A stretch of 64,000 nucleotides of DNA from an uncultured bacterium (lineage in GTDB: Bacteria; Patescibacteriota; Minisyncoccia; Phycocordibacterales; DATDWN01). Below, piece after piece: positions 6,247 to 52,707 of the stretch. The notes below the pieces were generated by a model, which searched no databases, was not told the origin of the DNA, and worked only from the letters and a program-made list of their open reading frames with translations. Location: assembly GCA_903861205.1 (NCBI GenBank), contig CAIOTC010000003.1:7964-71963 (forward strand), read 5' to 3'. Position 1 is the first letter of the stretch. The number at the start of each line of letters is the position of its first letter. The position numbers and the translations under genes are program-made.

Positions 6247-6360
6247 ATACGAAATAACGAATAAATTACGAATGGCTACGAATAAGGAATACAAAGCATT
6301 TCATTCGTTGCAATTCGTAGACCCATTCGTTACTTCGTATATTAAACAAGTTCGTTCTAG
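6246..6360. repeat. Family-D 'tacgaat' palindromic intergenic element
   Basis: Related copies at 15486-15597, 15793-15904, 27480-27520, 44128-44172. Confidence 0.55.
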
Positions 6361-6805: not shown

Positions 6806-6922
6806 TTTTAAAGAAATTTTCAATTTTTAATTTAAAATTTTCAATGAATTTCCAATTTAAAAATTTAGAAATTTAAAATTCAATAAAAATTAAAAATTCT
6901 AAATTAAAAATTATTCAAAATC

Positions 6923-7848: not shown

Positions 7849-7969
7849 TTACAAAAAATAATTTCTAATTTTTAATTTAAAATTTTTAATGAATGTCTAA
7901 ATTTAAAAATTGAATCAATTAAAATTCATTAAAAATTCAAAAATTAAAAATTAAAAATTTTTACAAACA

Positions 7970-8551
7970 ATGGAACCAGAAATACAAAAAGAAATAACAA
8001 CAGAAGCTCCGAAAGTGGACGCCAGTCGTCCTATGGATTTTCGTGGTGGGGAAAGAGGGGGATTTAGAAAAAATACTCGCAAGGGTCCACCTCGTCGCGA
8101 AGCTCGAGTCAAGCCGGAATTCGACCAGAAAATCATTAGCATTCGCCGAGTGACTCGCGTGGTTACCGGAGGACGACGATTCAGCTTTTCCGTCGGTATT
8201 GTTATCGGTGACAGAAAGGGACGCGTTGGTGTCGGCCAAGGCAAAGCGGGGGATACTCCTATCGCCATCGACAAAGCTGTGCGAAACGCCAGAAAAAATA
8301 TGATTACGGTCAAAATGACCAAGAACGGTTCCATTCCGCATGACGTGGAGGCAAAATACTCGGCATCGAGAGTGCATATCATGCGCGCTCCTGGCAAGGG
8401 AATTTTGGCCGGCTCAAGCGTTCGAACAGTTTTGGAATTTGCAGGACTGAAAGAAGTTAGCGCCAAAATATTTTCACGAAGCAAAAATAAAGTGAACAAC
8501 GCACAAGTGGCGATCAAGGCGCTGGGGATGCTGAAAACAGGAAACAAATAA
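7970..8551 (+). CDS. rpsE: 30S ribosomal protein S5
   Basis: RRVTRVVTGGRRFSFSVGIVIGDRKGRVGVGQGKA S5 signature. Confidence 0.95.
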   Translation: MEPEIQKEITTEAPKVDASRPMDFRGGERGGFRKNTRKGPPRREARVKPEFDQKIISIRRVTRVVTGGRRFSFSVGIVIGDRKGRVGVGQGKAGDTPIAIDKAVRNARKNMITVKMTKNGSIPHDVEAKYSASRVHIMRAPGKGILAGSSVRTVLEFAGLKEVSAKIFSRSKNKVNNAQVAIKALGMLKTGNK

Positions 8552-8659
8552 TTTAAAATTTATAATTTAGAATTTAAAATGAATTTAAAATTTCAAAATT
8601 GAATCAATGAAAATTCATTAAAAATTAAAAATTTTAAATTAAAAATTTCTTAAACTATC

Positions 8660-9094
8660 ATGCAACTGAACAATTTAAAAAGATTACATAAGAACAAAAA
8701 GACTCGGCAAATCGGCCGGGCTGGTCAGCGTGGAAAAACATCTGGACGCGGTACGAAAGGTCAGAACGCTCGCGCCGGACACAAAAAGCGACCGGAAATT
8801 CGCGATTTTATAAAGCGTTTGCCAAAAATGCGCGGACGAGGCAAAAATCTGAACACGAGTATAGAGACAAAACCGACGGTCATAAACTTGCGAGATCTTT
8901 CCGTTTTCAAAGCGGGCGAGGTTGTTTCTCCGGAGACGCTTGCTACAAAAAAAATAATTACAAAACTGGATGCCAGCCGTGGCGTCAAAATCCTTTCTGT
9001 CGGAGCAGTGACCGCCAAACTGACTATTTCAAAATGCTCTCTTTCGGCAGGAGCCAGAAAAGCGGTAGTGGATGCGGGAGGGGAAGTGAAGTAA
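8660..9094 (+). CDS. rplO: 50S ribosomal protein L15 (no L30 gene precedes it)
   Basis: MQLNNLKRLHKNKKTRQIGRAGQRGKTSGRGTKGQ. Confidence 0.9.
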   Translation: MQLNNLKRLHKNKKTRQIGRAGQRGKTSGRGTKGQNARAGHKKRPEIRDFIKRLPKMRGRGKNLNTSIETKPTVINLRDLSVFKAGEVVSPETLATKKIITKLDASRGVKILSVGAVTAKLTISKCSLSAGARKAVVDAGGEVK

Positions 9095-9205
9095 AAACAA
9101 TTTAAAATTTATAATTTAAAATTTTTAATGAATGTCTAAATTTAAAAATTGAATCAATGAAAATTCATTAAAAATTAAAAATTCTAAATTAAAAATTATA
9201 TTGTC

Positions 9206-10477
9206 ATGTCCAATTTTCTTAACAAACTATCTCTCATCTTCCAGGACAAAATTCTACGCAAAAGAATATTTTTCACTCTTTCTGCTTTGATTGTTTTTCG
9301 CGCGCTTGCTGCTATTCCGATTCCGGGTATTGACCACACTAAACTGGCATCATTTTTCTCCGGCAATGAATTCTTTGGATTACTGAACGTCTTTTCCGGA
9401 GGCGGACTTTCGCAATTCTCCATCATCATGCTCGGCGTGGCGCCTTACATTACCGGTTCGATTATCATGCAGCTCTTGACCATCATGTCGCCGAAGCTCA
9501 AGGCGATGTACCAGGAGGAAGGCGAAGCGGGCCGACGAAAATTTGCTCAGTGGGGACGACTTTTGACCGTTCCGCTGGCGCTTATCCAAGGTTTCAGCTT
9601 CATCAAAATTTTGCAAAGCCAAGGAGCTCTTTTGCCTCTTTCCACTTCAGCTTTGATTTCTGATTTGCTTATCATTACCGCCGGCTCGGTTCTGCTCATG
9701 TGGATTGGCGAGCTTATTTCCGAATACGGCATCGGCAACGGCGTTTCACTCATCATCTTTGCCGGTATCGTCTCCAGAATTCCGACAAGCGTCGGCCAAC
9801 TGCTTTACACGTTTGATCCGGCCCAGATTCCGTTTTACCTGGCGCTTTTGGTTGTCGGCGCGATTGTCATCATTGGTGTGGTTATCATTACCGAAGCCGA
9901 GCGCCCAATACCGGTGACGTACGCCCGCCAAGTTCGCGGCAACAAAGTTTACGGCGGCACATCGACCTATCTGCCGCTCCGCATCAACCAAGCCGGAGTT
10001 ATTCCGATTATTTTTGCTTCGTCCATACTTTTGTTTCCTCAAATGATTGTCCGATTTTTGCAAAACTCCAGCCACGCCATAATTCAATCGATTTCAAAAG
10101 TCGTATTGGCAGTTTTGGCGAACACCTGGTTTTACGGCATCGCTTACTTCCTTTTGGTTTTTGTCTTTACATATTTCTACACAGCCGTCACTTTTGATCC
10201 TGATCAGATTTCGACCAACTTGCAGAAAAACGGCGCCTTCATTCCCGGTGTTCGTCCTGGTAAATCCACTTCCGAACACATTGCCACCATTCTGACGCGA
10301 CTGACGCTTGTTGGCGCGCTCTTTCTCGGTGTTATCGCCGTCTTTCCGATCGTGGTCAAAAACATTACCGGCATCACAGCTATCTCCGTCGGAGGTACGG
10401 CGCTCCTGATTGTTGTCTCTGTCGTCATCGATCTTATTAAAAAGATTGACGCGCAAGTTTCTATTAGGGAGTATTAG
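9206..10477 (+). CDS. secY: Preprotein translocase subunit SecY
   Basis: 423 aa polytopic membrane protein after L15; conserved SecY N-terminus. Confidence 0.95.
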   Translation: MSNFLNKLSLIFQDKILRKRIFFTLSALIVFRALAAIPIPGIDHTKLASFFSGNEFFGLLNVFSGGGLSQFSIIMLGVAPYITGSIIMQLLTIMSPKLKAMYQEEGEAGRRKFAQWGRLLTVPLALIQGFSFIKILQSQGALLPLSTSALISDLLIITAGSVLLMWIGELISEYGIGNGVSLIIFAGIVSRIPTSVGQLLYTFDPAQIPFYLALLVVGAIVIIGVVIITEAERPIPVTYARQVRGNKVYGGTSTYLPLRINQAGVIPIIFASSILLFPQMIVRFLQNSSHAIIQSISKVVLAVLANTWFYGIAYFLLVFVFTYFYTAVTFDPDQISTNLQKNGAFIPGVRPGKSTSEHIATILTRLTLVGALFLGVIAVFPIVVKNITGITAISVGGTALLIVVSVVIDLIKKIDAQVSIREY

Positions 10478-10625
10478 AACAATTTCCAAATAACAATTTC
10501 CAATTTCCAATAAATTTTTCAATATTCCAATGAATCAAATACAATTCTTTGGAATTTTTTGGAAATTGATCCATTGATTAATTCATTGAAAATTGTAAAT
10601 TGGAAATTGAAAATTATTAGTGCTA
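10478..10625. repeat. Family-C palindromic intergenic element (ttccaatttccaatgaat...attcattggaaattgaaaatt)
   Basis: Copies at ~13075-13210, 30720-30835, 31948-32040, 37080-37195. Confidence 0.6.
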
Positions 10626-10635
10626 TTATTTTCTC

Positions 10636-11226: not shown

Positions 11227-11237
11227 TTTTCTGTCAT

Positions 11238-11300
11238 CCCCGCGAAGGCGGGGATCTAGATTACTCAATAATCATGGATTCCCGCCTTCGCGGGAATGAC
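11238..11300. repeat. GC-rich double-hairpin palindromic repeat (gtcatccccgcgaaggcggggat ... attcccgccttcgcgggaatgac)
   Basis: Two ~23-nt arms, each internally palindromic; related copy at 23550-23620. Confidence 0.45.
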
Positions 11301-11308
11301 AAAATAAA

Positions 11309-12076
11309 ATGATTACAACAAAAACTTCTGAGGAAATCGAAATTTTGAAGGAAGGTGGTCATCGCCACGCTTTTATTTTAGGCGAGTTGGCCAAAAAAGC
11401 GGCGGTGGGAGTTTCGACACAGGAGTTGGAAGATTTGGCGCGTGAGCTGATAAAAGAAGGCGGGGGCACACCGGCTTTTTTGAATTACACTCCGCGTGGA
11501 GCCAAGCGGCCGTATCCGGCGGCGCTTAACGTTTCCATTAACGACGAAATTGTTCACGGTATTCCGAACGAAGATCCGAAAATTTTGCAGGACGGCGATG
11601 TTGTTTCGCTTGATCTGGGGCTTGTTCACCAAGGCATGATTACCGATAGCGCTATCACGGTTGGCGTTGGTGACATTTCCGAGGAAGACAGGAAAATGAT
11701 TTTGCATTGCCAGGAAGCGCTCTCGATTGGCATCAAAGCGGCTAGAGGTGGCGGCAAAGTGGGGGACATTAGCAGTGCCATTGAAGTTTTTGTACGACCT
11801 CTCGGTTACGGTATTCCTGACGGCTTGGCAGGCCACGGTGTCGGCTACAAGGTTCACGAGGAGCCATTTGTGCCTAACGAGGGGGCAAAGGGCAAAGGCG
11901 AGCTATTGCGTCCCGGTATGGTTCTGGCGATTGAGCCAATGATCACGCTTGGTTCCTCACGCATTGTCCTGTCCGGCGACGGTTACACCTACAAAACAGC
12001 CGATGGTTCGCGCGCCGCTCATTTCGAGCATACGATAGTGATCACGGATGGAGAAGCGATAATACTTACAAAATAA
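11309..12076 (+). CDS. map: Type I methionine aminopeptidase
   Basis: 255 aa; conserved metal-binding regions (DLGLVHQGM, HGVGY..HE). Confidence 0.95.
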   Translation: MITTKTSEEIEILKEGGHRHAFILGELAKKAAVGVSTQELEDLARELIKEGGGTPAFLNYTPRGAKRPYPAALNVSINDEIVHGIPNEDPKILQDGDVVSLDLGLVHQGMITDSAITVGVGDISEEDRKMILHCQEALSIGIKAARGGGKVGDISSAIEVFVRPLGYGIPDGLAGHGVGYKVHEEPFVPNEGAKGKGELLRPGMVLAIEPMITLGSSRIVLSGDGYTYKTADGSRAAHFEHTIVITDGEAIILTK

Positions 12077-12176
12077 TTTTCAATTTTTAATTTAGAATTT
12101 TTAATGAATATCTAAATTTTAAAATTTAATAATTGAAAATTCATTAAAAATTAAAAATTTTAAATTAAAAATTTAT

Positions 12177-12779
12177 ATGCATCCAAAATTTGAACGTACA
12201 CTTGTTATTATAAAACCCGATGGAGTACAGAGAAGTTTGATCGGCGAAATCATTGGCAGGTTTGAAAAGCTTGGCTTGAAAATGGTGGCAGCCAAAATGT
12301 GCGTGCCAACAGCAGAACATGTTGAAAAACATTACACTCTTGATCCCGAATGGCGCAGAATTACAGGAGAAAAAAGAGTCAAAGCGGCCAAAGAAAAAGG
12401 AGAAAAACTTGCGACGGAAGACCCTTTTGAAATTACAGCAAAAATTTTGGAAGTTTTGATAAAATACATGACATCAGGGCCAGTGGTAGCAATGGTTTGG
12501 CAGGGCGCGCACGCCACTGAATTGGTCAGAAAAATTGTCGGAGGCACGGAACCGCGAAGTTCTGATGTTGGCACAATTCGCGGAGATTATGTTCTTGATT
12601 CGTATGTAATGGCAGACACGGACAGCAGAGCTATCAGAAATCTAGTCCATGCTTCCGGCACAGCCAAAGAATCCGAGGCGGAAATAAAACACTGGTTTAA
12701 AGATGACGAAGTTCTCGACTACAAACTTGTTCAGGAATCTATTCTCTACGATGTAAACCTTGACGGCATATTTGAATAA
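12177..12779 (+). CDS. ndk: Nucleoside diphosphate kinase (with a C-terminal extension)
   Basis: ERTLVIIKPDGVQRSLIGEIIGRFE; 200 aa versus the usual ~140. Confidence 0.9.
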   Translation: MHPKFERTLVIIKPDGVQRSLIGEIIGRFEKLGLKMVAAKMCVPTAEHVEKHYTLDPEWRRITGEKRVKAAKEKGEKLATEDPFEITAKILEVLIKYMTSGPVVAMVWQGAHATELVRKIVGGTEPRSSDVGTIRGDYVLDSYVMADTDSRAIRNLVHASGTAKESEAEIKHWFKDDEVLDYKLVQESILYDVNLDGIFE

Positions 12780-12787
12780 TTAGTAAA

Positions 12788-12867
12788 GGAAGCAGCAGCA
12801 TAATAATTTTCCTCGGCTCCGCAGGAGATGGAGGTCGGTCGAGGAAAATTATTATGCTGCTGCTTCC
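12788..12867 (+). terminator. Long perfect hairpin after ndk (28-bp stem)
   Basis: ggaagcagcagcataataattttcctcg and its exact reverse complement, separated by 24 nt. Confidence 0.4.
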
Positions 12868-13227
12868 TTCCTTGCATCTTCATTTCGGCGGAAGTATAAT
12901 CGAGGTAGGGTTACATGATTTTTCTTTCTAAACATTTTTAAGGGAGTCTCATATTTGTGTATTATGGCGAGCGCTTGTCGTTCCGATTGATACATTTGCG
13001 GACACCCACCTAGTATTTTTCTAGGGGAAACTCATGTAGCTCTACTAAAAAACTCCGCTTTGGCGGAATTTTTTAAATTTCCAATTTCCAATTATCAATT
13101 TCCAATGAATGATTCAATTAACCAATTTCCAAAAAATAAAATAGTCCTGTTTGATTTATTGTGGCATTGAAAAATTTATTGGAAATTGGAAATTGATAAT
13201 TGGAAATTGTTGGGGTATTATTACCCA

Positions 13228-13629
13228 ATGATGTCCCAGAGACTTTTCAAACGAGCTTTTTTGGTACTGCTAGTAACGGCTGTTTTGAATTGGTTTGTAA
13301 GCATGATGTATTTACACTGGACCATTTGGTGGATTGATATTATTTTGCATTTTTTGGGTGGTCTTTCTGTGGCATTATTCTTTTTGTGGTTTTGCGCGAC
13401 AAAGTTTGATTTGAAAAATTGGAGTTCGCGTAAAATTTTGTTTGCAGTTTTGGGTTGTGTGATTTTGGTCGGTGTCTTGTGGGAATTGTATGAATTATAT
13501 TTTGGTCTGACATTTCTCTCCGACGGTTTGAGCTATTTTGCCGACACATTTTCGGATTTGATAATGGATGTTGTAGGCGGGTTGACTGGATTTCTTTACA
13601 TTCAACTTCTTTTGAAAAATAATGAGTAA
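13228..13629 (+). CDS. Hypothetical polytopic membrane protein
   Basis: ~4 predicted TM helices; internal ATG of ORF 13186..13629. Confidence 0.45.
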   Translation: MMSQRLFKRAFLVLLVTAVLNWFVSMMYLHWTIWWIDIILHFLGGLSVALFFLWFCATKFDLKNWSSRKILFAVLGCVILVGVLWELYELYFGLTFLSDGLSYFADTFSDLIMDVVGGLTGFLYIQLLLKNNE

Positions 13630-15031
13630 TTTACAAATCACATTTTTCGGCGGAGTGGGAAGCGTCACTGGCGCTAATTTTATTTTGCAAAATAATTCCA
13701 CAAAAATAGCCGTTGATTGCGGATTATTGCAAGGGACAGCTGATGCCGATGCGGAAAATGCTAAAACTTTTCCGTACGATCCGTCCACTCTCGATTTTCT
13801 TTTCATCACCCACGCTCACATGGACCACATTGGCAAAGTGGCCAAGCTGGTCAAAGACGGTTTCAAAGGTCTCGTTTATTCCACGCCGGAAACGAAAGAA
13901 CTTTCCCAGCTCATGCTCTCGGATGCTTTGCAGGTTATGCAAATAAGGGAGCAAAGCGAACACTTATGCGTGAGTAATCTCACGCCAAATGGTTCGACTT
14001 TTTTGTACGACCAGTTTGATTTGTCGAAAACTTTTTCGCTTTGGCAGACCATTCCATATCATGCCGAGAAAAAACTGACGGATGAAATTTCCGTTTTTGT
14101 GATGGATGCCGGACACATTCTAGGCTCGGCCATGTATAAATTTACGTGCAACAATAAAAAAATTGTTTTCACCGGAGATTCTGGCAACTCGCCGGCGCCG
14201 CTTCTGCGAGATACCGACAAAATCACCGACGCTGATTATTTGATTATGGACAGCGTTTACGGCGACAGAAATCACGAACCAAAGGATGAGCGCGACGAAA
14301 AGTTTCGTCGGATTGTCACCGAAACAATTTCAGCCGGCGGAACCCTTCTTATTCCGGCTTTTTCTCTGGAGAGAACGCAGGTCATTTTGTACGAGCTAAA
14401 TAATTTGATTGAGGATAAAAAAATCCCGTCGGTGCCGGTTTTTCTGGACGCTCCGCTTGGTGAAAAAGTGACCGAAGTTTACAAAAAATATACAAAAGAT
14501 TTCAACGCGGAAGTCCAAAGTGAAATAAAATCCGGCGATGACATTTTCAATTTTCCAAAACTGAACATAACCCACGGACACACTGATTCAATGAAAATCG
14601 CGCATACACCAAATCCGAAAATAATTATCGCCGGTTCGGGCATGTCCTCCGGCGGGCGAGTGTTGGGGCACGAAATAAATGTTTTGCCTGATCCGAAATC
14701 AACGCTCCTGCTCATGGGCTACCAGGCTCTCGGCACACTTGGGCGAACTTTACAGAACAAACCAAAATCGGCAGAAATTCCCGTAGGCCGAAACAGCGAA
14801 ACACAAACAGTCAGAGTGAACGCCAGAATCGAAATGATATCCGGCTATTCGTCGCACAAAGATTTGGATCATTTGGTGGAAATGGTAGGAGACACGACCG
14901 AAACTGTAAAAAAAGTTTTCGTCGTCATGGGCGAACCATCCGCCTCGACATTCCTCGTCCAGCGTCTGCGCGAATTTCTGGACGTCGACGCGGTCTACCC
15001 TGAAAGAGGAAAGGTGTATGAATTAAACTAA
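13622..15031 (+). CDS. MBL-fold beta-CASP RNA-metabolising hydrolase (RNase J/CPSF-like)
   Basis: HAHMDHIG metallo-beta-lactamase motif; 469 aa; beta-CASP-length C-terminal region. Confidence 0.7.
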   Translation: MSNLQITFFGGVGSVTGANFILQNNSTKIAVDCGLLQGTADADAENAKTFPYDPSTLDFLFITHAHMDHIGKVAKLVKDGFKGLVYSTPETKELSQLMLSDALQVMQIREQSEHLCVSNLTPNGSTFLYDQFDLSKTFSLWQTIPYHAEKKLTDEISVFVMDAGHILGSAMYKFTCNNKKIVFTGDSGNSPAPLLRDTDKITDADYLIMDSVYGDRNHEPKDERDEKFRRIVTETISAGGTLLIPAFSLERTQVILYELNNLIEDKKIPSVPVFLDAPLGEKVTEVYKKYTKDFNAEVQSEIKSGDDIFNFPKLNITHGHTDSMKIAHTPNPKIIIAGSGMSSGGRVLGHEINVLPDPKSTLLLMGYQALGTLGRTLQNKPKSAEIPVGRNSETQTVRVNARIEMISGYSSHKDLDHLVEMVGDTTETVKKVFVVMGEPSASTFLVQRLREFLDVDAVYPERGKVYELN

Positions 15032-15057
15032 AAACCACCTCGCGGTGGTCTTTTATT

Positions 15058-15477
15058 TTATGCAGTTGCTGTTTCCAGTTTTGGAGCGGATTTGGCCGGC
15101 TTAGTTGCTTTGATTTCCGGAGCGGTGGAGAATTCAACCACTTTTTTGAAAGTTTCGGGCGATTCCTTGACCAGGGTGGCCAGGATTTTTCGGTCAATCA
15201 GAACATTTTTCTTTTTCATTGCGCCCATCAGTTTGCTGTACGAAAGCTTTTTATCACCTTGCATTTCCTTGACAGCATATGAGATGTTGACGTTCCACAT
15301 TCGTCTGGCCACGCCTTTTTTGTCGCGTCGGTGAGCAAAAGCGTACGCGCCGGCGTGCTCAATGGCTTCGATGGCTTGTCGTTCTTTGGTTGATCGGCCA
15401 AAGCGAAAACCCTTCACTCGTCGCAGGACGTTTCGTCTGGTCTTTAATGCGTTTACTCCTTTTTTTACTCTTGTCAT
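15058..15477 (-). CDS. rplT: 50S ribosomal protein L20
   Basis: MTRVKKGVNALKTRRNVLRRVKGFRFGR... Confidence 0.9.
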   Translation of the reverse strand: MTRVKKGVNALKTRRNVLRRVKGFRFGRSTKERQAIEAIEHAGAYAFAHRRDKKGVARRMWNVNISYAVKEMQGDKKLSYSKLMGAMKKKNVLIDRKILATLVKESPETFKKVVEFSTAPEIKATKPAKSAPKLETATA

Positions 15478-15485
15478 AAAATTAA

Positions 15486-15597
15486 TATACGAATATGCGA
15501 ATAAATACCAATCTACGAATGGCTACGAATGGGAACGTGATGTTTTGAATTATTCGCATTCATTCGCATCATTCGTCCATTCGCATATTCGTATGTT
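15486..15597. repeat. MITE-like 112-bp element with 16-bp terminal inverted repeats (atacgaatatgcgaat...attcgcatattcgtat), copy 1
   Basis: 100% identical to copy 2 at 15793-15904; tacgaat-family motifs. Confidence 0.6.
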
Positions 15598-15785
15598 TAA
15601 CTTTTAATATAAAACGCTCTATCCTTATTGCTAATCGGCCACTCGGCGCTGCGATTTTTGGCCATCTGATTTCTAGAACTTTCTTTCGTATTGAAATGAT
15701 TTTGACCGGTTCTGCGGGCAATGATTTTGCCGTTCTTGGTCACTTTCAATCGTTTGGTAAATGATTTGTTTGTTTTTGTTGACAT
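15597..15785 (-). CDS. rpmI: 50S ribosomal protein L35
   Basis: 62 aa lysine/arginine-rich, L35-like; infC-rpmI-rplT order. Confidence 0.9.
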   Translation of the reverse strand: MSTKTNKSFTKRLKVTKNGKIIARRTGQNHFNTKESSRNQMAKNRSAEWPISNKDRAFYIKS

Positions 15786-15792
15786 GATGATA

Positions 15793-15904
15793 CGAATATG
15801 CGAATAAATACCAATCTACGAATGGCTACGAATGGGAACGTGATGTTTTGAATTATTCGCATTCATTCGCATCATTCGTCCATTCGCATATTCGTATGTT
15901 TAAC
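15793..15904. repeat. MITE-like 112-bp element, copy 2
   Basis: Identical to 15486-15597; lies between infC and rpmI. Confidence 0.6.
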
Positions 15905-16412
15905 TTGCTTTTTCAATTATTATACTTAATCCCTTTGGGCTTTTGACAGCCGGTCCGGTCACTTTGTACTCCTCGGTAATAAGTTTCAAAACTCTCTCCA
16001 TTCTTTCCTTGAGAAAGTTTATGTCCATATATTTTGTCCTGCCGGGAAGAAATAAGTCTACTTTGATGCGATGACCTTCCTTGAGCCACTCGGACGCTTT
16101 CTTGGCCTTGAGAGCCAAATCGTTGTCTCCCGTGCCGACCTTGACCTGGATATTCTTTATCTCTACCGTGTGAACCTTTGTTTTGGCCACCTTTTGCTTC
16201 TTGTTTTCAGCATACTGAAATTTACCATAATCCATGATTTTTGCAACCGGCGGAACGGCTTTGGGCGAAATCTCGATGAGGTCAAGCCCTGCCTCGCGCG
16301 CTTTTTGGATCGCTTCTTTGAGCGGCAAAACGCCGAGATTTTCGCCGTCCTCCATGATGACACGGAGTTCTGACGCCTGGATTTGGTTGTTTATTTTTAT
16401 TCTTTCTATCAA
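15900..16412 (-). CDS. infC: Translation initiation factor IF-3
   Basis: 170 aa, IF3 N- and C-domains (KINNQIQASELRVI..., VKVGTGDNDLALKAKKASEWL). Confidence 0.9.
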   Translation of the reverse strand: MIERIKINNQIQASELRVIMEDGENLGVLPLKEAIQKAREAGLDLIEISPKAVPPVAKIMDYGKFQYAENKKQKVAKTKVHTVEIKNIQVKVGTGDNDLALKAKKASEWLKEGHRIKVDLFLPGRTKYMDINFLKERMERVLKLITEEYKVTGPAVKSPKGLSIIIEKAS

Positions 16413-16506
16413 GTTTTTGATTATTTAATTACCTGGCAAATATAGCACTATTTGATAAGAATTGCAAGATAAAAAAAGGCATGGATTTCTCCACGCCCGT
16501 GCTCTC

Positions 16507-19030: not shown

Positions 19031-19033
19031 AAA

Positions 19034-19422
19034 TGTGGAAGTGCCGACATTGAAGTCGGATGCAAAGAAAGAATTGAAATGGGTCTACAACGCTTAGTTT
19101 GTTTCAGGTTTTAGATCTTGCAGCTATAAAACAAACAAAACACTGCAAAATCGAGTCTCTATTTTTTAGAAAATTTTATGAGACAATAAAATTTTCGAAT
19201 CCGAATTTATTAGAACTACGTATCCCTATCGGATGTTGGGAAGGTAATCCTTTCTTACGCTCTCGCGTAGGAAAAAGCGAAATTGTTTGCCGTAAAATAC
19301 GGAGAAACAGTTGCTCGTTTAGTTAAGTTGTTTACACTTAGCTTTCCGGACTGTTTTAGAAGGATCCGGTACTTCGCGTCGCGCATGACAATGTGCAATC
19401 TATGTCAAAACCTGTCACCCCC
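19034..19422 (-). ncRNA. ssrA: tmRNA (SsrA), ~387 nt; proposed tag ANNFAFSYARA
   Basis: - strand 5' GGGGGUGACAGGUUUUGACAUAG...; 3' T-arm CCGACUUCAAUGUCGG; acceptor CACUUCC pairs with GGGGGUG including G3:U70; resume GCA at 19290, stop UAA at 19257-19255; immediately downstream of smpB. Confidence 0.7.
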
Positions 19423-19556
19423 ATACTAAAATACAATTTAAAATTTTTAATTTAGAATTTAAAATTAATTTAAAAATTGAATCATTGAAAATTCAATAAA
19501 AATTAAAAATTTTAAATTAAAAATTATTCTTGCATTCTCGCATCAGAGTGCCAAAT

Positions 19557-26798: not shown

Positions 26799-27494
26799 TT
26801 ACCCAATGAGAGCTCCACGCAAACTCGCCGGATTCTTTCCGTCCCAGGAGATTTCGCCGGTCAAAACTTTTTCGGTGATGATCGGCTGCCATTTGTGTTC
26901 TGTCTCGAGGACGCGCGCGGCAAGCGTGTCGGCTGTGTCGTCGGGAAGAATTGGCACAGATTGTGAAAAGAAAAGCGGACCTTCGTCGTATTTTTCGGTG
27001 ACGAAATGCATTGAAACGGCCGAGTGAGTTATTTTTTCGCAAGAACTGTTCTTGCGAAAGTTGTGATATGCTTCCATGACCGCTTCGTGGACGTGGTGGC
27101 CATACATGCCGGCGCCGCCGAAACGGGGGAGCGGTCCAGGGTGAATGTTGATCGTTTTTTGAGGATCCAAACCGGTGACCAGTTTGAGCCAGCCCGAAAG
27201 GCAAACCAAATCCGCGTCGGCGACAATTTTTCTGTAATTTTCCGCCGTGCCGAATTCCGGTCCAGTTTCTCCATCAACGGGTTTGCGCGCGGGGAAGTAA
27301 ATAAATTTCACACCCAATCTGTCGGCGCGCTGTCTCACCCCGCCGTTTTCGTGATTGGAGACCACGGCCAAAATTTCGGCATTCAAAATTCCATTTCGTG
27401 AAGCATTCACCAAATTTTCAAACCCGCTACCTCCGCCGTCTTTTGTGCCGGAAGCGAAAATGATGATTTTCTTTTTTGTATCATTCGTAGTCAT
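26799..27494 (-). CDS. purN: Phosphoribosylglycinamide formyltransferase-like (PurN family)
   Basis: IIIFASGTKDGGGSGFENL and NIHPGPLPRFGGAGMYGHHVHEAV formyltransferase motifs; in-frame REP palindrome at 27035-27059. Confidence 0.65.
   Translation of the reverse strand: MTTNDTKKKIIIFASGTKDGGGSGFENLVNASRNGILNAEILAVVSNHENGGVRQRADRLGVKFIYFPARKPVDGETGPEFGTAENYRKIVADADLVCLSGWLKLVTGLDPQKTINIHPGPLPRFGGAGMYGHHVHEAVMEAYHNFRKNSSCEKITHSAVSMHFVTEKYDEGPLFFSQSVPILPDDTADTLAARVLETEHKWQPIITEKVLTGEISWDGKNPASLRGALIG
27035..27059. repeat. REP palindrome variant (tttcgcaagaactgttcttgcgaaa), in-frame inside the purN-like gene
   Basis: Perfect palindrome; encodes FRKNSSCEK. Confidence 0.55.
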
Positions 27495-27581
27495 TCGTAA
27501 TTAATTCGTTATTTCGTATATGTGGATAAGTATAGCAAACATTTTATTTTTTGTGGCGTATACTCTACTCAGAGGTGTCAT

Positions 27582-30676: not shown

Positions 30677-30835
30677 GAAGATATTATACAATGAGTGAAT
30701 ATGGTATACTATATTAATAATTTTCAAGTAACAATTTCCAATTTTCAATAAATGAATCAATTTTTCAATTGGACAATTGGTTCATTGAGAAATTCATTGG
30801 AAATTGAAAATTGCTAATTGGAAATTTTTTCAAAA

Positions 30836-31945: not shown

Positions 31946-32177
31946 TTTCCAATTTTCAATTTCCAATGAATTTTTCAATTGGACAATTGGCTCATTGAGA
32001 AATTCATTGGAAATTGAAAATTGCTACTTGAAATTTTTTGTGTATAACTTGCATAGTTTTTTGTTTTAACTTGCTGTATAATTTACATGAGTAAAAATAA
32101 TTTAAAATTTAAAAATTTGTCATTCAAAATTCATTTTAAATTTTAAATTCTAAATTTTAAATTAAAAATTTTTTTCC

Positions 32178-35906: not shown

Positions 35907-36009
35907 ATTTTCAATTTAAAATTTAGAATTTTTAATGAATGTCTAAATTTAAAAATTTAATCATTGAAAATTCAATAAAAATTAAAAATTAAAAATTTTA
36001 AATTATATT

Positions 36010-37077: not shown

Positions 37078-37197
37078 GGACAAATTTTCAAGTAACAATT
37101 TCCAATTTCCAATGAATTTCTCAATGAACCAATTGTCCAATTGAAGAATTGATTCATTTATTGGAAATTGGAAATTGATAATTATTTTTTATTCATG

Positions 37198-39059: not shown

Positions 39060-39203
39060 AATTATCCACAGTGCCCCTTTTCACCGCTTGCATATAACCG
39101 TATAATAGATGTACTAGTTTAATAGATGAATTCTCTGAAAAAGAGGCGGTCGAGCTAGAAAATTTATTTACAAGAATTTATTAATAAAATTATCAATTAA
39201 TAT

Positions 39204-39695
39204 ATGAAATATATGAAAAGAGGTTTTACGCTTATTGAATTGCTCGTGGTTATCGCCATCATCGGTATTCTTTCATCAGTTGTTTTGGCTAGTTTGAACA
39301 CTGCTCGAAACAAGGGTGCTGATGCCGCTATCAAGTCAAACTTGGCAAATGCTCGCGCACAAGCAGAGATTTTCTATGATACTAACGGTCAGACTTACGA
39401 TGCTGGTACAGCTGCCACTGATGTTTGTAACACAGCAGCATCAGTCGGTAACCCGGCTGTAAAAGGTGTATTTGCAAATGTTCAGGCTGCAGCTACAACC
39501 GCAGGGGCGGGTACTGCGCTTACAGACACGGCAGAAACAACAACAAACGCAGTGTGTAATAGTTCTGCTACTGGATGGGCCGCAGCAGTTCCCCTAAAGG
39601 GAGGTGGACAGTGGTGTGTTGACAGCACAGGAAAGTCAGTACCGGAGGTAGCTGCAAACCTGTTGGCACCAGCTGCAACAGTGGCTTGCCCATAG
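39204..39695 (+). CDS. pilA: Type IV major pilin-like (PilA paralog 1)
   Basis: MKYMKRGFTLIELLVVIAIIGILSSVVLASLNTARNKGADAAIKSNLANARAQAEIFYD; C-terminal WCVDSTG...C. Confidence 0.8.
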   Translation: MKYMKRGFTLIELLVVIAIIGILSSVVLASLNTARNKGADAAIKSNLANARAQAEIFYDTNGQTYDAGTAATDVCNTAASVGNPAVKGVFANVQAAATTAGAGTALTDTAETTTNAVCNSSATGWAAAVPLKGGGQWCVDSTGKSVPEVAANLLAPAATVACP

Positions 39696-39725
39696 TACTT
39701 GATTATGTTTTAGTTTTAGATTCAG

Positions 39726-39752
39726 AAAAACCGGCCTTGGCCGGTTTTTCGT
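39726..39752 (+). terminator. Rho-independent terminator (aaaaaccggccttggccggttttt)
   Basis: Perfect 8-bp stem plus T-run. Confidence 0.55.
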
Positions 39753-39850
39753 TTATTTGAGTTATCAACACCTCACGTTTGTATTGTCTTTTTATGTTGT
39801 ATAATATATCCATAACTTTATAAGTTTTAAATTATTAGTTTATTAAACAT

Positions 39851-40339
39851 ATGAATAAGACAAATCGAGGTTTTACGCTTATTGAATTACTCGTGGTTAT
39901 CGCCATCATCGCACTTCTGTCGTCGGTTGTTCTGGCATCACTTAACTCAGCCAGGAATAAGGGTGCTGATGCAGCTATCAAATCAAACTTGGCAAATGCT
40001 CGCGCACAAGCGGAGATTTTCTATGATGCAAATGGAAGTTCTTATATGGGTACTATTAACACAGCTACCGATGTATGTAACACAGCCGCTTCAGTTAATG
40101 GAGTAAAGGGTATTTATCCAAATGTTCTTGCGGCGATACAAGTAAGTCAGGGTTCTGGTGGTGCTCTAGTCGCTGAAAATGCGGTAGAAACTGGCACAAC
40201 TGCCTCGTGCAACCCCGCTTCAGGTACTTGGGTCGCTCAGGCCCCTTTAAAAAGTGCGGGTTTTTGGTGTGTTGACAGTACGGGCGCTTCTGTTCCTGAA
40301 GCAGCTGTATTACCTATCAACGCGACCAAGTGTCAGTAA
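39851..40339 (+). CDS. Type IV pilin (PilA paralog 2)
   Basis: N-terminal ~60 aa near-identical to 39204 gene. Confidence 0.8.
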   Translation: MNKTNRGFTLIELLVVIAIIALLSSVVLASLNSARNKGADAAIKSNLANARAQAEIFYDANGSSYMGTINTATDVCNTAASVNGVKGIYPNVLAAIQVSQGSGGALVAENAVETGTTASCNPASGTWVAQAPLKSAGFWCVDSTGASVPEAAVLPINATKCQ

Positions 40340-40492
40340 AATACTTGGATAGTTTTAAAAACCGCTCTCCTCAAGGGGGTGGTTTTTGTATGTAAAGTTA
40401 TCAACAAGCTCTAATTTTGTTTATTTTTTTAAGTTGTATAATGAAATCACAAGGTCCAAATTGTCACTTAATTCTTATTAGGTTTTAATTTT

Positions 40493-40918
40493 ATGAAAAA
40501 CATTAAAAGAGGTTTTACGCTTATTGAATTACTCGTGGTTATCGCCATTATCGGTATTCTTTCCGCGGTTGTTTTAGCGAGTTTAAATACAGCTCGAGAT
40601 AAAGGTGCTGACGCAGCTATAAAAGGAGATTTGGATGGTATCCGTGCTCAAGCGCAAATAGTTTACGAGGATAATTCAAATGATTATACCAATGTTTGTA
40701 TAGATCAGACTGTTATTGCTGCTGTAACTGGCGCACTTACAGCCGGAACAGATCTAGGGGCATTAGCTGACAGATGCCACTCCGACACCGACCATTGGAA
40801 CGCTTGGGCCACGCTCAAAACCGACACTGCCCAAATGTGGTGCGTGGACAACACCGGCACATCGCGCCAAGGCCCCGTCGCCTCCGCCCCCACCGACCCC
40901 CTCACCCCTTGCCCATAA
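40493..40918 (+). CDS. Type IV pilin (PilA paralog 3)
   Basis: Same leader and N-helix; WCVDNTG motif. Confidence 0.8.
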   Translation: MKNIKRGFTLIELLVVIAIIGILSAVVLASLNTARDKGADAAIKGDLDGIRAQAQIVYEDNSNDYTNVCIDQTVIAAVTGALTAGTDLGALADRCHSDTDHWNAWATLKTDTAQMWCVDNTGTSRQGPVASAPTDPLTPCP

Positions 40919-44129: not shown

Positions 44130-44177
44130 TGTACGAAATAACGAATGGGTCTACGAATGTCTACGAATAAATACAAA

Positions 44178-48516: not shown

Positions 48517-48616
48517 AAGTTAAGAAGTTGAAAAAGTTTAATAAGTTGAATAAGGAAATGCAAGAAACTTATACAACTTATTTAACTAAAGCGAAGCGTA
48601 ACTTATTAAACTTGTA
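48516..48616 (+). repeat. Family-B intergenic element (aagttgaataag...ctaaagcgaagcgtaacttattaaac) abutting the gatA start codon
   Basis: Copies also at ~819-913, 1844-1935 and 2630-2722, each ending at the ATG of rplP, rplN and rplE. Confidence 0.6.
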
Positions 48617-52468: not shown

Positions 52469-52604
52469 ACACGTAATTTGAACACGAAAAGTGGATAATT
52501 CGAGTTGATTTTGACGTTAAAGTATGATAGCATTCGTCCACAGCGGGATAGAGTAGCAGTAACTCGCGGGGCCCATAACCCTGAAACTCACGTGCAAGTC
52601 GTGA

Positions 52605-52661
52605 TCCCGCAACAAGTATGAAAAAACACCCATAATGGGTGTTTTTTCATACTTGTTGCGG
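52605..52661. other. Perfect 26-bp-stem hairpin (cccgcaacaagtatgaaaaaacaccc-ataat-gggtgttttttcatacttgttgcggg)
   Basis: Read directly; lies between the HEPN-like gene and tRNA-Met. Confidence 0.4.
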
Positions 52662-52707
52662 GATAGCGCTTGTTTTTATTCACTTGTTATATTATATTGT
52701 TTGTGCA

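Follow-up and report, generated by a model that had tools for sequence, protein, structure and literature searches.

The window analysed here comprises 64,000 nucleotides of contig CAIOTC010000003.1 from an uncultured member of the Patescibacteria. Its minus strand carries the operon infC-rpmI-rplT, in which each of the two intergenic spacers is filled by one copy of the same palindromic element (Table 1). Each copy is a hairpin-forming, non-coding intergenic repeat of approximately 116-125 bp and belongs to a large family of the Patescibacteria, designated here the RCGAAT family after its recurrent hexamer word. The family is apparently undescribed; keyword and exact-sequence searches of the literature returned no description of it within the library searched.

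Structure of the repeat pair

A repeat search of the window detected an exact direct repeat of 117 nt (two copies, 100% identical) with a start-to-start spacing of 303 nt. In both copies the 16-nt inverted termini ATACGAATATGCGAAT and ATTCGCATATTCGTAT are perfect and their arms lie 76 nt apart, which gives a span of 108 nt from one terminal inverted repeat (TIR) to the other. A preliminary description, made from the sequence alone, had reported two identical copies with 16-bp TIRs, one upstream of rplT and the other upstream of rpmI on the minus strand, all of which was confirmed; the length of 112 bp given there was wrong, and the start of the second copy had to be shifted by 3 nt, from 15793 to 15790. 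The terminal 16-mer, searched at up to 3 mismatches, gave 6 matches in the window, all of them within the two copies (0.70 matches expected from shuffled sequence; 0 of 100 shuffles reached 6).

The identity is asymmetric and runs for 9 nt (GTTTAACTT, plus strand) past one TIR only. On the coding strand this end reads A-AGT-TAA-AC and supplies the last serine codon and the stop codon of both initiation factor IF3 (...EKAS*) and ribosomal protein L35 (...YIKS*). Read on the minus strand, copy 1 consists of AAGTTAAAC plus ATACGAAT...ATTCGTAT. The left arm following AAGTTAAAC is ATACGAAT-ATGCGAAT-GGACGAAT-GATGCGAAT-GAATGCGAAT, and beyond a 21-nt loop stands the mirror array CCCATTCGTAG-CCATTCGTAG-ATTGGTATTT-ATTCGCAT-ATTCGTAT. 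Both arms are arrays of hexamer words, RCGAAT on the left and ATTCGY on the right. Past the last TIR base, copy 1 continues with ATTAATTTT-ATG into rplT and copy 2 with CATC-ATG into rpmI. The extension of copy 1 forms, together with the TIR end, the sequence ATATTAATTT, which matches the conserved gene-proximal end in the family alignment and is common to window copy 1, L125 and L127. All open reading frames (ORFs) spanning the element were spurious, so that the element is regarded as non-coding.

The repeat pair is real; other assemblies of the same strain agree with it, so that it does not stem from misassembly. Samples ERZ27313102, ERZ27313080 and ERZ18625277 represent this population. An independent assembly from ENA (L001) was identical through both copies, and a fourth contig likewise had an infC-rplT distance of 422 nt. 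Identical contigs from two further samples broke off inside copy 1, as assemblers do at repeats.

Both elements are situated inside the likely transcript of the operon, since a promoter-like site is located upstream of infC and terminator-like sites were found at 16498-16477 and 15053-15030; the former is a second conventional GC-rich terminator-like site. The elements themselves were considered as intrinsic terminators and rejected: the terminator scan found these two sites and none at the elements, which lack a short GC-rich stem followed by a T-run.

Table 1. Positions of genes, repeat copies, predicted signals and related palindromes (window coordinates unless a locus is named).
Feature	Position	Strand	Basis or remark
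infC (initiation factor IF3)	15900-16412	-	Pfam IF3_N and IF3_C
rpmI (ribosomal protein L35)	15597-15785	-	tblastn to relatives, 46-84% identity
rplT (ribosomal protein L20)	15058-15477	-	PF00453 on record for identical product
Likely operon promoter, TTGCAA-N17-TATATT with TG motif, upstream of infC	16439-16467	-	Promoter scan
GC-rich terminator-like hairpin and T-run after rplT	15030-15053	-	Ordinary terminator appearance in this genome
Copy 1 of 117-nt repeat	15487-15603	-	Fills rpmI-rplT spacer; repeat search
Copy 2 of 117-nt repeat	15790-15906	-	Fills infC-rpmI spacer; repeat search
Copy 1 TIR ATACGAATATGCGAAT	15487-15502		Partner 15579-15594
Copy 2 TIR, 16 nt, 100% complementary	15790-15805		Partner 15882-15897
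Element end AAGTTAAAC, copy 1	15595-15603	-	Gives last codon AGT and TAA stop of rpmI
Element end AAGTTAAAC, copy 2	15898-15906	-	Gives extra Ser codon and stop of infC
Extension in copy 1 only, ATTAATTTT	15478-15486	-	Runs straight into rplT ATG
Sigma-70-like site TTGGTA-N16-TATATT, right arm of copy 1	15484-15511	-	Consensus match 9/12
Sigma-70-like site TTGGTA-N16-TATCAT, copy 2	15787-15814	-	Ends 1 nt before rpmI ATG
Diverged full-length family member between rpsN (S14) and rpsH (S8)	6247-6342		Folds with -32.8 (+) and -42.9 (-) kcal/mol
One-arm array ATATACGAAATAACGAATTAATTACGAATGACTACGAAT	27483-27521	-	Abuts start of purN-like gene
One-arm array TACGAAATAACGAATGGGTCTACGAATGTCTACGAAT	44132-44168	+	Upstream of pilin-like gene
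Complex hairpin of about 150 nt	L202 1775-1945; L024 10660-10885; L026 7855-8002; L003 7170-7325
AAAGTT hairpins	L018 1545-1647, 1822-1938		Two-site pattern as in window, other family
Other-word palindromes (AATTTxA, CAATTTC, AAGTTGAAT)	817-913, 2308-2398, 6806-6922, 7849-7965, 8535-8659, 9085-9205, 10470-10635, 12060-12180, 13060-13220, 30719-30826, 31950-32023, 35913-36004, 37096-37177
AAGTTGAAT-word hairpins	817-913, 1846-1932, 2633-2719, 48526-48612; L013 10495-10610

The RCGAAT family

The pattern TACGAATATGCGAATN{1,14}CGAAT (20 bases) matched at least 120 metagenome contigs, which covered 29-62% GC among the matches listed; 10-20 chance matches were estimated for an assumed collection size of 0.5-1 Tb. 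Further words were present on nearly all contigs among the matches listed, and clustering of the words yielded 53 hairpins and 64 one-arm arrays. Full family members are palindromes of about 100-125 bp. Among 2.9 million viral contigs the pattern had 0 matches, and a phage origin was rejected.

The nearest matches to the window copy were found at L146 (86% over 123 nt) and L175 (84%). The L146 element is located between a gene for a UvrD/PcrA-type helicase (pcrA) and ksgA, and its TIR overlaps the ksgA ATG. At L022 and L027 a short member lies between adk and map; here the junction of AAGTTAAAC and ATACGAAT is read in another frame, in which it codes for the C-terminal residues of adenylate kinase (Adk; ...EKLNIRINE*). 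In other lineages the family also recurs in the operon itself, between rpmI and rplT at L188 (L20 56% identical to that of the window) and L095, after infC at L196 (IF3 44% identical) and in both spacers at L056. Where ribosomal genes were present on family-bearing contigs, they were distant from those of the window.

Alignment of 16 members gave the consensus TTAAACATACGAATATRCGAATGAnACGAATGATGCGAATGGCTACGAATAA-loop-TTATTCGTAGCCATTCGTAGATTnGnATTATTCGCATATTCGTATATTAATTT. Mean column identity was 64%, and the invariant columns are essentially the letters of CGAAT and ATTCG: the words are invariant across the family, and the 2-5-nt spacers between them vary freely. In one arm the third word regularly departs from the motif (ATTnG; RCHAAT when read on the opposite strand), which produces a conserved mismatch in the stem. 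The stop-proximal end of the family is ..AG[AGT]T[AT]AACAT, and ATATTAATTT following copy 1 is its other end. Metagenomic copies show the former to be an end of the family itself, so that the seemingly flanking 9 nt (AAGTTAAAC) are part of the element. Insertion specifically after GTTAAA, which was suggested by three junctions sharing AAGTTAAAC, was excluded by this family end.

Family elements take up the whole spacer from stop to start. At co-directional sites the median distance was 8.5 nt from the stop codon to the first word and 13.5 nt from the last word to the start codon. With respect to spacer type, 56 arrays were co-directional, 16 divergent and 6 convergent, against a baseline of 608, 140 and 151; the comparison of convergent with divergent spacers favoured divergent ones (Fisher's test, p = 0.025, on crude gene calls). 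This bias is the opposite of what is expected for ordinary terminators, which were excluded on this ground as well. One-arm arrays were found facing either way with respect to the gene that follows them. Copies within a contig were normally no more alike than copies on different contigs, the window pair being the exception.

Insertion relative to the ancestral operon

An IF3 scan with one genome per species yielded 80 loci, all from Patescibacteria (Paceibacteria, Zambryskibacteria, Taylorbacteria and "Parcubacteria"; best 85% identical). In most of these relatives about 10-30 nt separate infC from rpmI and about 15-40 nt separate rpmI from rplT, and IF3 of relatives lacking the element ends with ...EKA* or ...ERA*, without the extra serine. 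In the closest relative found, L202 (IF3 89% identical), infC and rpmI are separated by GCATAG, 21 nt and then ATG. Because the spacers of relatives are short and the infC-rpmI spacer of L202 is free of the element, the element is to be read as an insertion into an ancestral operon with 10-40-nt spacers, and not as part of a conserved leader. This bears out the earlier view of a mobile-looking element in leader positions, and a longer leader conserved among relatives, which would have spoken against it, was not found: spacers are short at both sites in most of them and the family is dispersed.

Other structures occupy these spacers in some of the relatives. A different, more complex hairpin of about 150 nt was observed in the infC-rpmI or rpmI-rplT spacer of several relatives, the closest one included. 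A core near GAGGCGTACTA is common to those of L202 and L024, and those of L026 and L003 resemble them only in size and overall shape. The Zambryskibacteria genome L018 carries AAAGTT-word hairpins in both spacers, which have diverged from each other.

Origin of the identical pair

Downstream of infC, L021 carries AGTTAG followed by ATTATTCGTAGCCATTCGTACATTCG...ATTCGTATCATTATG-TCAACAAAAAC, i.e. a remnant of the element end and the right arm only. As counted by us on the alignment, this arm is about 80% identical to that of the window, and it adjoins rpmI in the same way; the right junction CGTATCATCATGTCAAC of copy 2 is common to both. The L021 sequence would most simply be read as a full element that has lost its left arm by deletion. 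Since the remnant shares the rpmI junction, the infC-rpmI site was probably occupied before the window and L021 lineages (IF3 82% identical) separated. The site being old, 100% identity between copies 303 nt apart requires a recent event. Copy 1 retains the complete gene-proximal end ATATTAATTT of the family and copy 2 does not, for which reason both sites were probably occupied already.

The tract from AAGTTAAAC to ...CGTAT was probably copied from one site to the other, and the complete identity would then result from recent gene conversion or template switching between neighbours 303 nt apart. Overwriting of one copy by its neighbour is probable, and two fresh transpositions are less likely.

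Interpretation of the element

The copy 1 region (15478-15610) was predicted to fold as minus-strand, i.e. coding-strand, RNA with -44.9 kcal/mol (z = -6.9); the opposite strand gave -40.0 kcal/mol (z = -5.7), and -42.0 kcal/mol was predicted for copy 2. In the predicted structure the outer 20 bp of the stem pair perfectly, and small internal loops are located between the inner words. Considering all evidence, we regard it as probable that the pair represents a palindromic insertion of the RCGAAT family which was homogenised by local copying and is tolerated as a hairpin, and that it is not an L20 operator. The element would be co-transcribed with the operon and fold into a hairpin of about 45 bp. 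At the base of the hairpin the stop codon of the preceding gene, 4 nt ahead of the stem, would come to lie beside the following start codon, 4-9 nt behind the stem, and a terminating ribosome could open the lowest part of the stem and make the start region accessible, so that coupling is preserved. An insertion of 116 nt might in this manner be tolerated in a translationally coupled operon, which may explain its survival in ribosomal operons. The hairpin may additionally serve as a processing or stability site; as modelled, the perfect 20-bp stem is a plausible substrate of RNase III. Should the elements be no more than tolerated, they illustrate how some 116 nt can be concealed by a hairpin in a tightly coupled operon.

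Several observations weigh against this interpretation. Formation of the hairpin in vivo and any effect on expression are hypothetical. A folding advantage of the sense strand was absent, as about 15 of 28 co-directional elements folded better on that strand (own tally), and elements oriented by their end motif showed no strand bias (mean difference 0.14 kcal/mol). RNAalifold gave 0 compensatory pairs among 16 members, and a role at the RNA level is consequently without evolutionary support; the alignment register slipped among the repeated words, and the invariant words are uninformative either way. Regarding the origin, copy 1 has TTAAT (5 bp) on both sides of the 117-nt unit, which could be a real duplication. 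Direction and mechanism of the copying are inferred, and a precise transposition without duplication, as known from IS200/IS605 or REP/RAYT systems, would leave a similar picture. The count of copies, from which a recent burst would be judged, refers to 64 kb of the genome. Finally, the strict conservation of the words in otherwise diverged copies suggests recognition by some factor, for which a purely passive element does not account.

We consider a different interpretation possible but doubtful: the arrays of RCGAAT and of the other words, which fill most spacers between cistrons of this genome, might serve as iterons recognised by a factor that acts in trans and is conserved across Patescibacteria, and the palindromic elements as a portable, selected punctuation of genes. 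Each element would then contribute a stop codon, a long hairpin for joining or processing of cistrons, and a start-proximal promoter or initiation region. The elements would in that case constitute a functional layer of operon organisation in reduced genomes poor in Shine-Dalgarno sequences, and not selfish DNA. If the words are read by a factor, the family would give access to transcription, RNA processing or recombination in organisms for which culture on their own is not yet possible.

Recent transposition of a MITE (miniature inverted-repeat transposable element), as proposed in the preliminary description, is unlikely. According to this explanation a transposase acting in trans recently inserted the same miniature transposon upstream of rpmI and of rplT. 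The element does resemble a MITE in its small size, its perfect 16-bp TIRs, its non-coding nature, the complete identity of the copies and the presence of both filled and empty sites among relatives; the family is also scattered over many loci, and TTAAT surrounds the unit of copy 1. This repeat was discounted, since one of the pair belongs to the family's conserved end. Copy 2 has no target-site duplication, and none was consistent across 45 family members. No pair of termini 250-6000 nt apart enclosing a transposase-like gene was detected in the window and 200 loci (about 2 Mb, partial genomes), and an autonomous partner element was rejected on the same search. The identity extending 9 nt past one TIR only and the old junction to rpmI, shared with L021, also argue against fresh insertion, and the diverged within-contig copies elsewhere argue against bursts. 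Within the 64 kb covered, which are part of a genome, the family comprises 2 identical copies next to each other, 1 that has diverged and 2 half arrays; the search for further copies that had been recommended with the MITE proposal covered this stretch.

Quite unlikely, in our view, is a portable expression module, in which an outward promoter in the gene-proximal arm would produce a leaderless rplT transcript and the RCGAAT words would be sites for a conserved factor. The -10 box of the sigma-70-like site in copy 1 ends exactly 6 nt before the rplT ATG (15477), which corresponds to leaderless geometry, and ends of the form ...TATATTAA(A/T)TT-ATG occur 6-10 nt before the start at L125, L127, L187 and L183. 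The preference for divergent over convergent spacers, the drift of the spacers between invariant words, and one-arm arrays upstream of genes in both orientations, with one upstream of a tRNA-like sequence (L112), would also be in line with such a module. However, the promoter assignment is a consensus match of 9/12 in AT-rich sequence, the usual hexamer spacer in the family is 15 nt (own count) and suboptimal, and the spacer-type comparison rests on crude gene calls. The site in copy 2 cannot serve the rpmI start because its -10 box ends 1 nt before the ATG. At L107 a canonical TTGACA-N17-TATGAT promoter is located upstream of a one-way array, which makes the array a transcribed leader there.

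In Escherichia coli the L20 operator is located upstream of rpmI. The position of copy 2 agrees with this, and the recurrence of the family in the same operon at L188, L095, L196 and L056 would fit a transcribed hairpin co-opted as an L20 site controlling rpmI-rplT translation, as suggested earlier. Such an autoregulatory operator is very improbable: no Rfam family, the L20 leader (RF00558) included, matched at the gathering score or at E<=10 over 15000-16500, the output being limited to chance-level matches to miRNA precursors; most relatives, the closest among them, lack the element; the family also stands in unrelated operons (pcrA-ksgA, adk-map, rpsN-rpsH) and upstream of unrelated genes; and the second copy is upstream of rplT itself, a position for which an operator is not known. 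By the same Rfam searches other described RNA families were ruled out. The operon in this clade is without a recognisable L20 operator, and L20 feedback may be absent or built differently.

Comparison with known repeat systems

Nearest in kind among known systems are palindromic repeats of bacterial intergenic regions (Correia/NEMIS, ERIC, REP/BIME, RPE). The element differs from all of these named families by its iterated invariant words with drifting spacers, its fit from stop to start and its span of very different genomes.

Correia elements end in promoter-like hexamers and form hairpins that RNase III processes. The Correia elements of Neisseria (CREE/NEMIS) are, like the element described here, palindromic, non-coding and intergenic, have a length of about 100-155 bp and TIRs, and are often co-transcribed; end promoters and RNase III processing are proposed as possible for the RCGAAT element, too. 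They differ in having 26-bp TIRs, a TA duplication, an IHF site and hundreds of near-identical copies in one genus, whereas the RCGAAT element has no duplication, consists of arrays of 6-nt words and occurs as diverged copies on contigs of 29-62% GC. ERIC (IRU) elements of enterobacteria are imperfect palindromes of about 125 bp which are transcribed in intergenic or intra-operon positions and vary in presence between related genomes; in contrast, they share no sequence similarity with the element and have neither iterated words nor a regular stop-to-start fit.

REP/BIME sequences are likewise intergenic palindromes with diverged copies, no target duplication and links to mRNA stability. REPs are 20-40 nt long with a GTAG or CGTC head and a flanking RAYT gene, while the present element is three to five times longer (108-125 nt) and its termini are ATACGAAT, not GTAG; no RAYT gene was seen in the sequence examined, which is part of the genome. 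Rickettsia palindromic elements (RPE) share the property of a palindromic repeat readable as part of a host gene. They lie in frame inside genes and encode about 30-50 amino acids, whereas the RCGAAT element contributes only the last 1-5 codons, i.e. the terminal serine and stop of IF3 and L35, or IRINE* of Adk in L022 and L027. With the L20 leader (RF00558) and the E. coli operator, the element has in common the operon and the location upstream of rpmI; unlike these, it matches no model, is neither conserved nor operon-specific, and has a second copy upstream of rplT.

An integron attC site was considered: Vibrio cholerae repeats, like the element, are imperfect palindromes of about 120 bp positioned behind each ORF, and the end GTTAAAC fits the core GTTRRRY. 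The other end has no inverse core (RYYYAAC), many members have GATAAAC or GTTTAAC, and the intervening genes infC, rpmI and rplT are housekeeping genes in conserved synteny and not cassettes; no integrase was seen. With one fitting end and syntenic flanking genes, attC was rejected. TIGR arrays are local dual-spacer units with box C/D motifs beside a tas gene (bioRxiv 10.64898/2026.09.09.750476); they were ruled out by architecture, as the element has 6-nt words spaced 8-11 nt over many spacers, a tas gene not having been searched for.

Neighbouring genes and other palindromic elements

The genomes of Patescibacteria are very small, and repetitive DNA is considered to be scarce in them. The 64 kb of the window contain at least 24 long palindromic elements, many of which fill spacers between essential translation genes, and exact words identify the RCGAAT family alone in at least 120 contigs that differ widely in base composition. 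The count of 24 from the palindrome finder is a lower bound, since elements whose arms differ by indels were missed, the target element included. Element density in the window was 0.38 per kb, compared with 0.05-0.43 per kb in close relatives; most of the more distant relatives sampled had none. In practice the elements cause contig breaks and missed small genes. The protein collection has no L35 product for 15597-15785, and the small rpmI was seemingly missed by gene callers.

Convergent to rplT, a gene at 13622-15031 (+) encodes a beta-CASP protein with metallo-beta-lactamase fold (Pfam Lactamase_B, Beta-Casp, RMMBL), which may be read from its domain set as RNase J/CPSF-like. This gene and rplT share the bidirectional terminator-like hairpin at 15030-15053.

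Other word families in the window (AATTTxA, CAATTTC, AAGTTGAAT and AAAGTC) fill spacers of the ribosomal protein operon. Palindromes of about 100 nt composed of such words occupy most ribosomal-operon spacers and several others from stop to start. The AAGTTGAAT-word hairpins have a conserved non-palindromic tail, CTAAAGCGAAGCGTAACTTAT, and in another species (L013) one of them fills the infC-rpmI spacer. An AATTT-word palindrome at 19435-19518 extends to 13 nt from the mature 5' end of tmRNA (transfer-messenger RNA; 19033-19422, -), on its upstream side; the spacer on this side is seemingly divergent, and the tmRNA promoter or leader must overlap the palindrome. The adk-map spacer of the window (11232-11301) contains another GC-rich inverted pair, TCATCCCCGCGAAGGCGGGGAT ... 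TCCCGCCTTCGCGGGAATGA, and a similar motif, GTCATTCCCGCGTAGGCGGGA, was observed after RCGAAT arrays in the unrelated metagenome contigs L093, L107 and L137. At L107 (6150-6440, -) the clpB leader, downstream of the canonical promoter mentioned above, has three tandem one-way word arrays (RCGAAT, TGTGTAAA and AATTTTT), the first of which is found again, unchanged, at a distance of 1.7 kb.

At 39199-40677 a 190-nt segment is present three times in tandem; the copies, 75-82% identical and spaced by about 645 nt, span a row of ORFs of about 160 amino acids and are consistent with tandem paralogous genes. Long near-perfect palindromes without repeated words are present at 12786-12869 and 52604-52664, with arms of 30 and 29 nt, respectively; the latter is located between two tRNA-Met genes.

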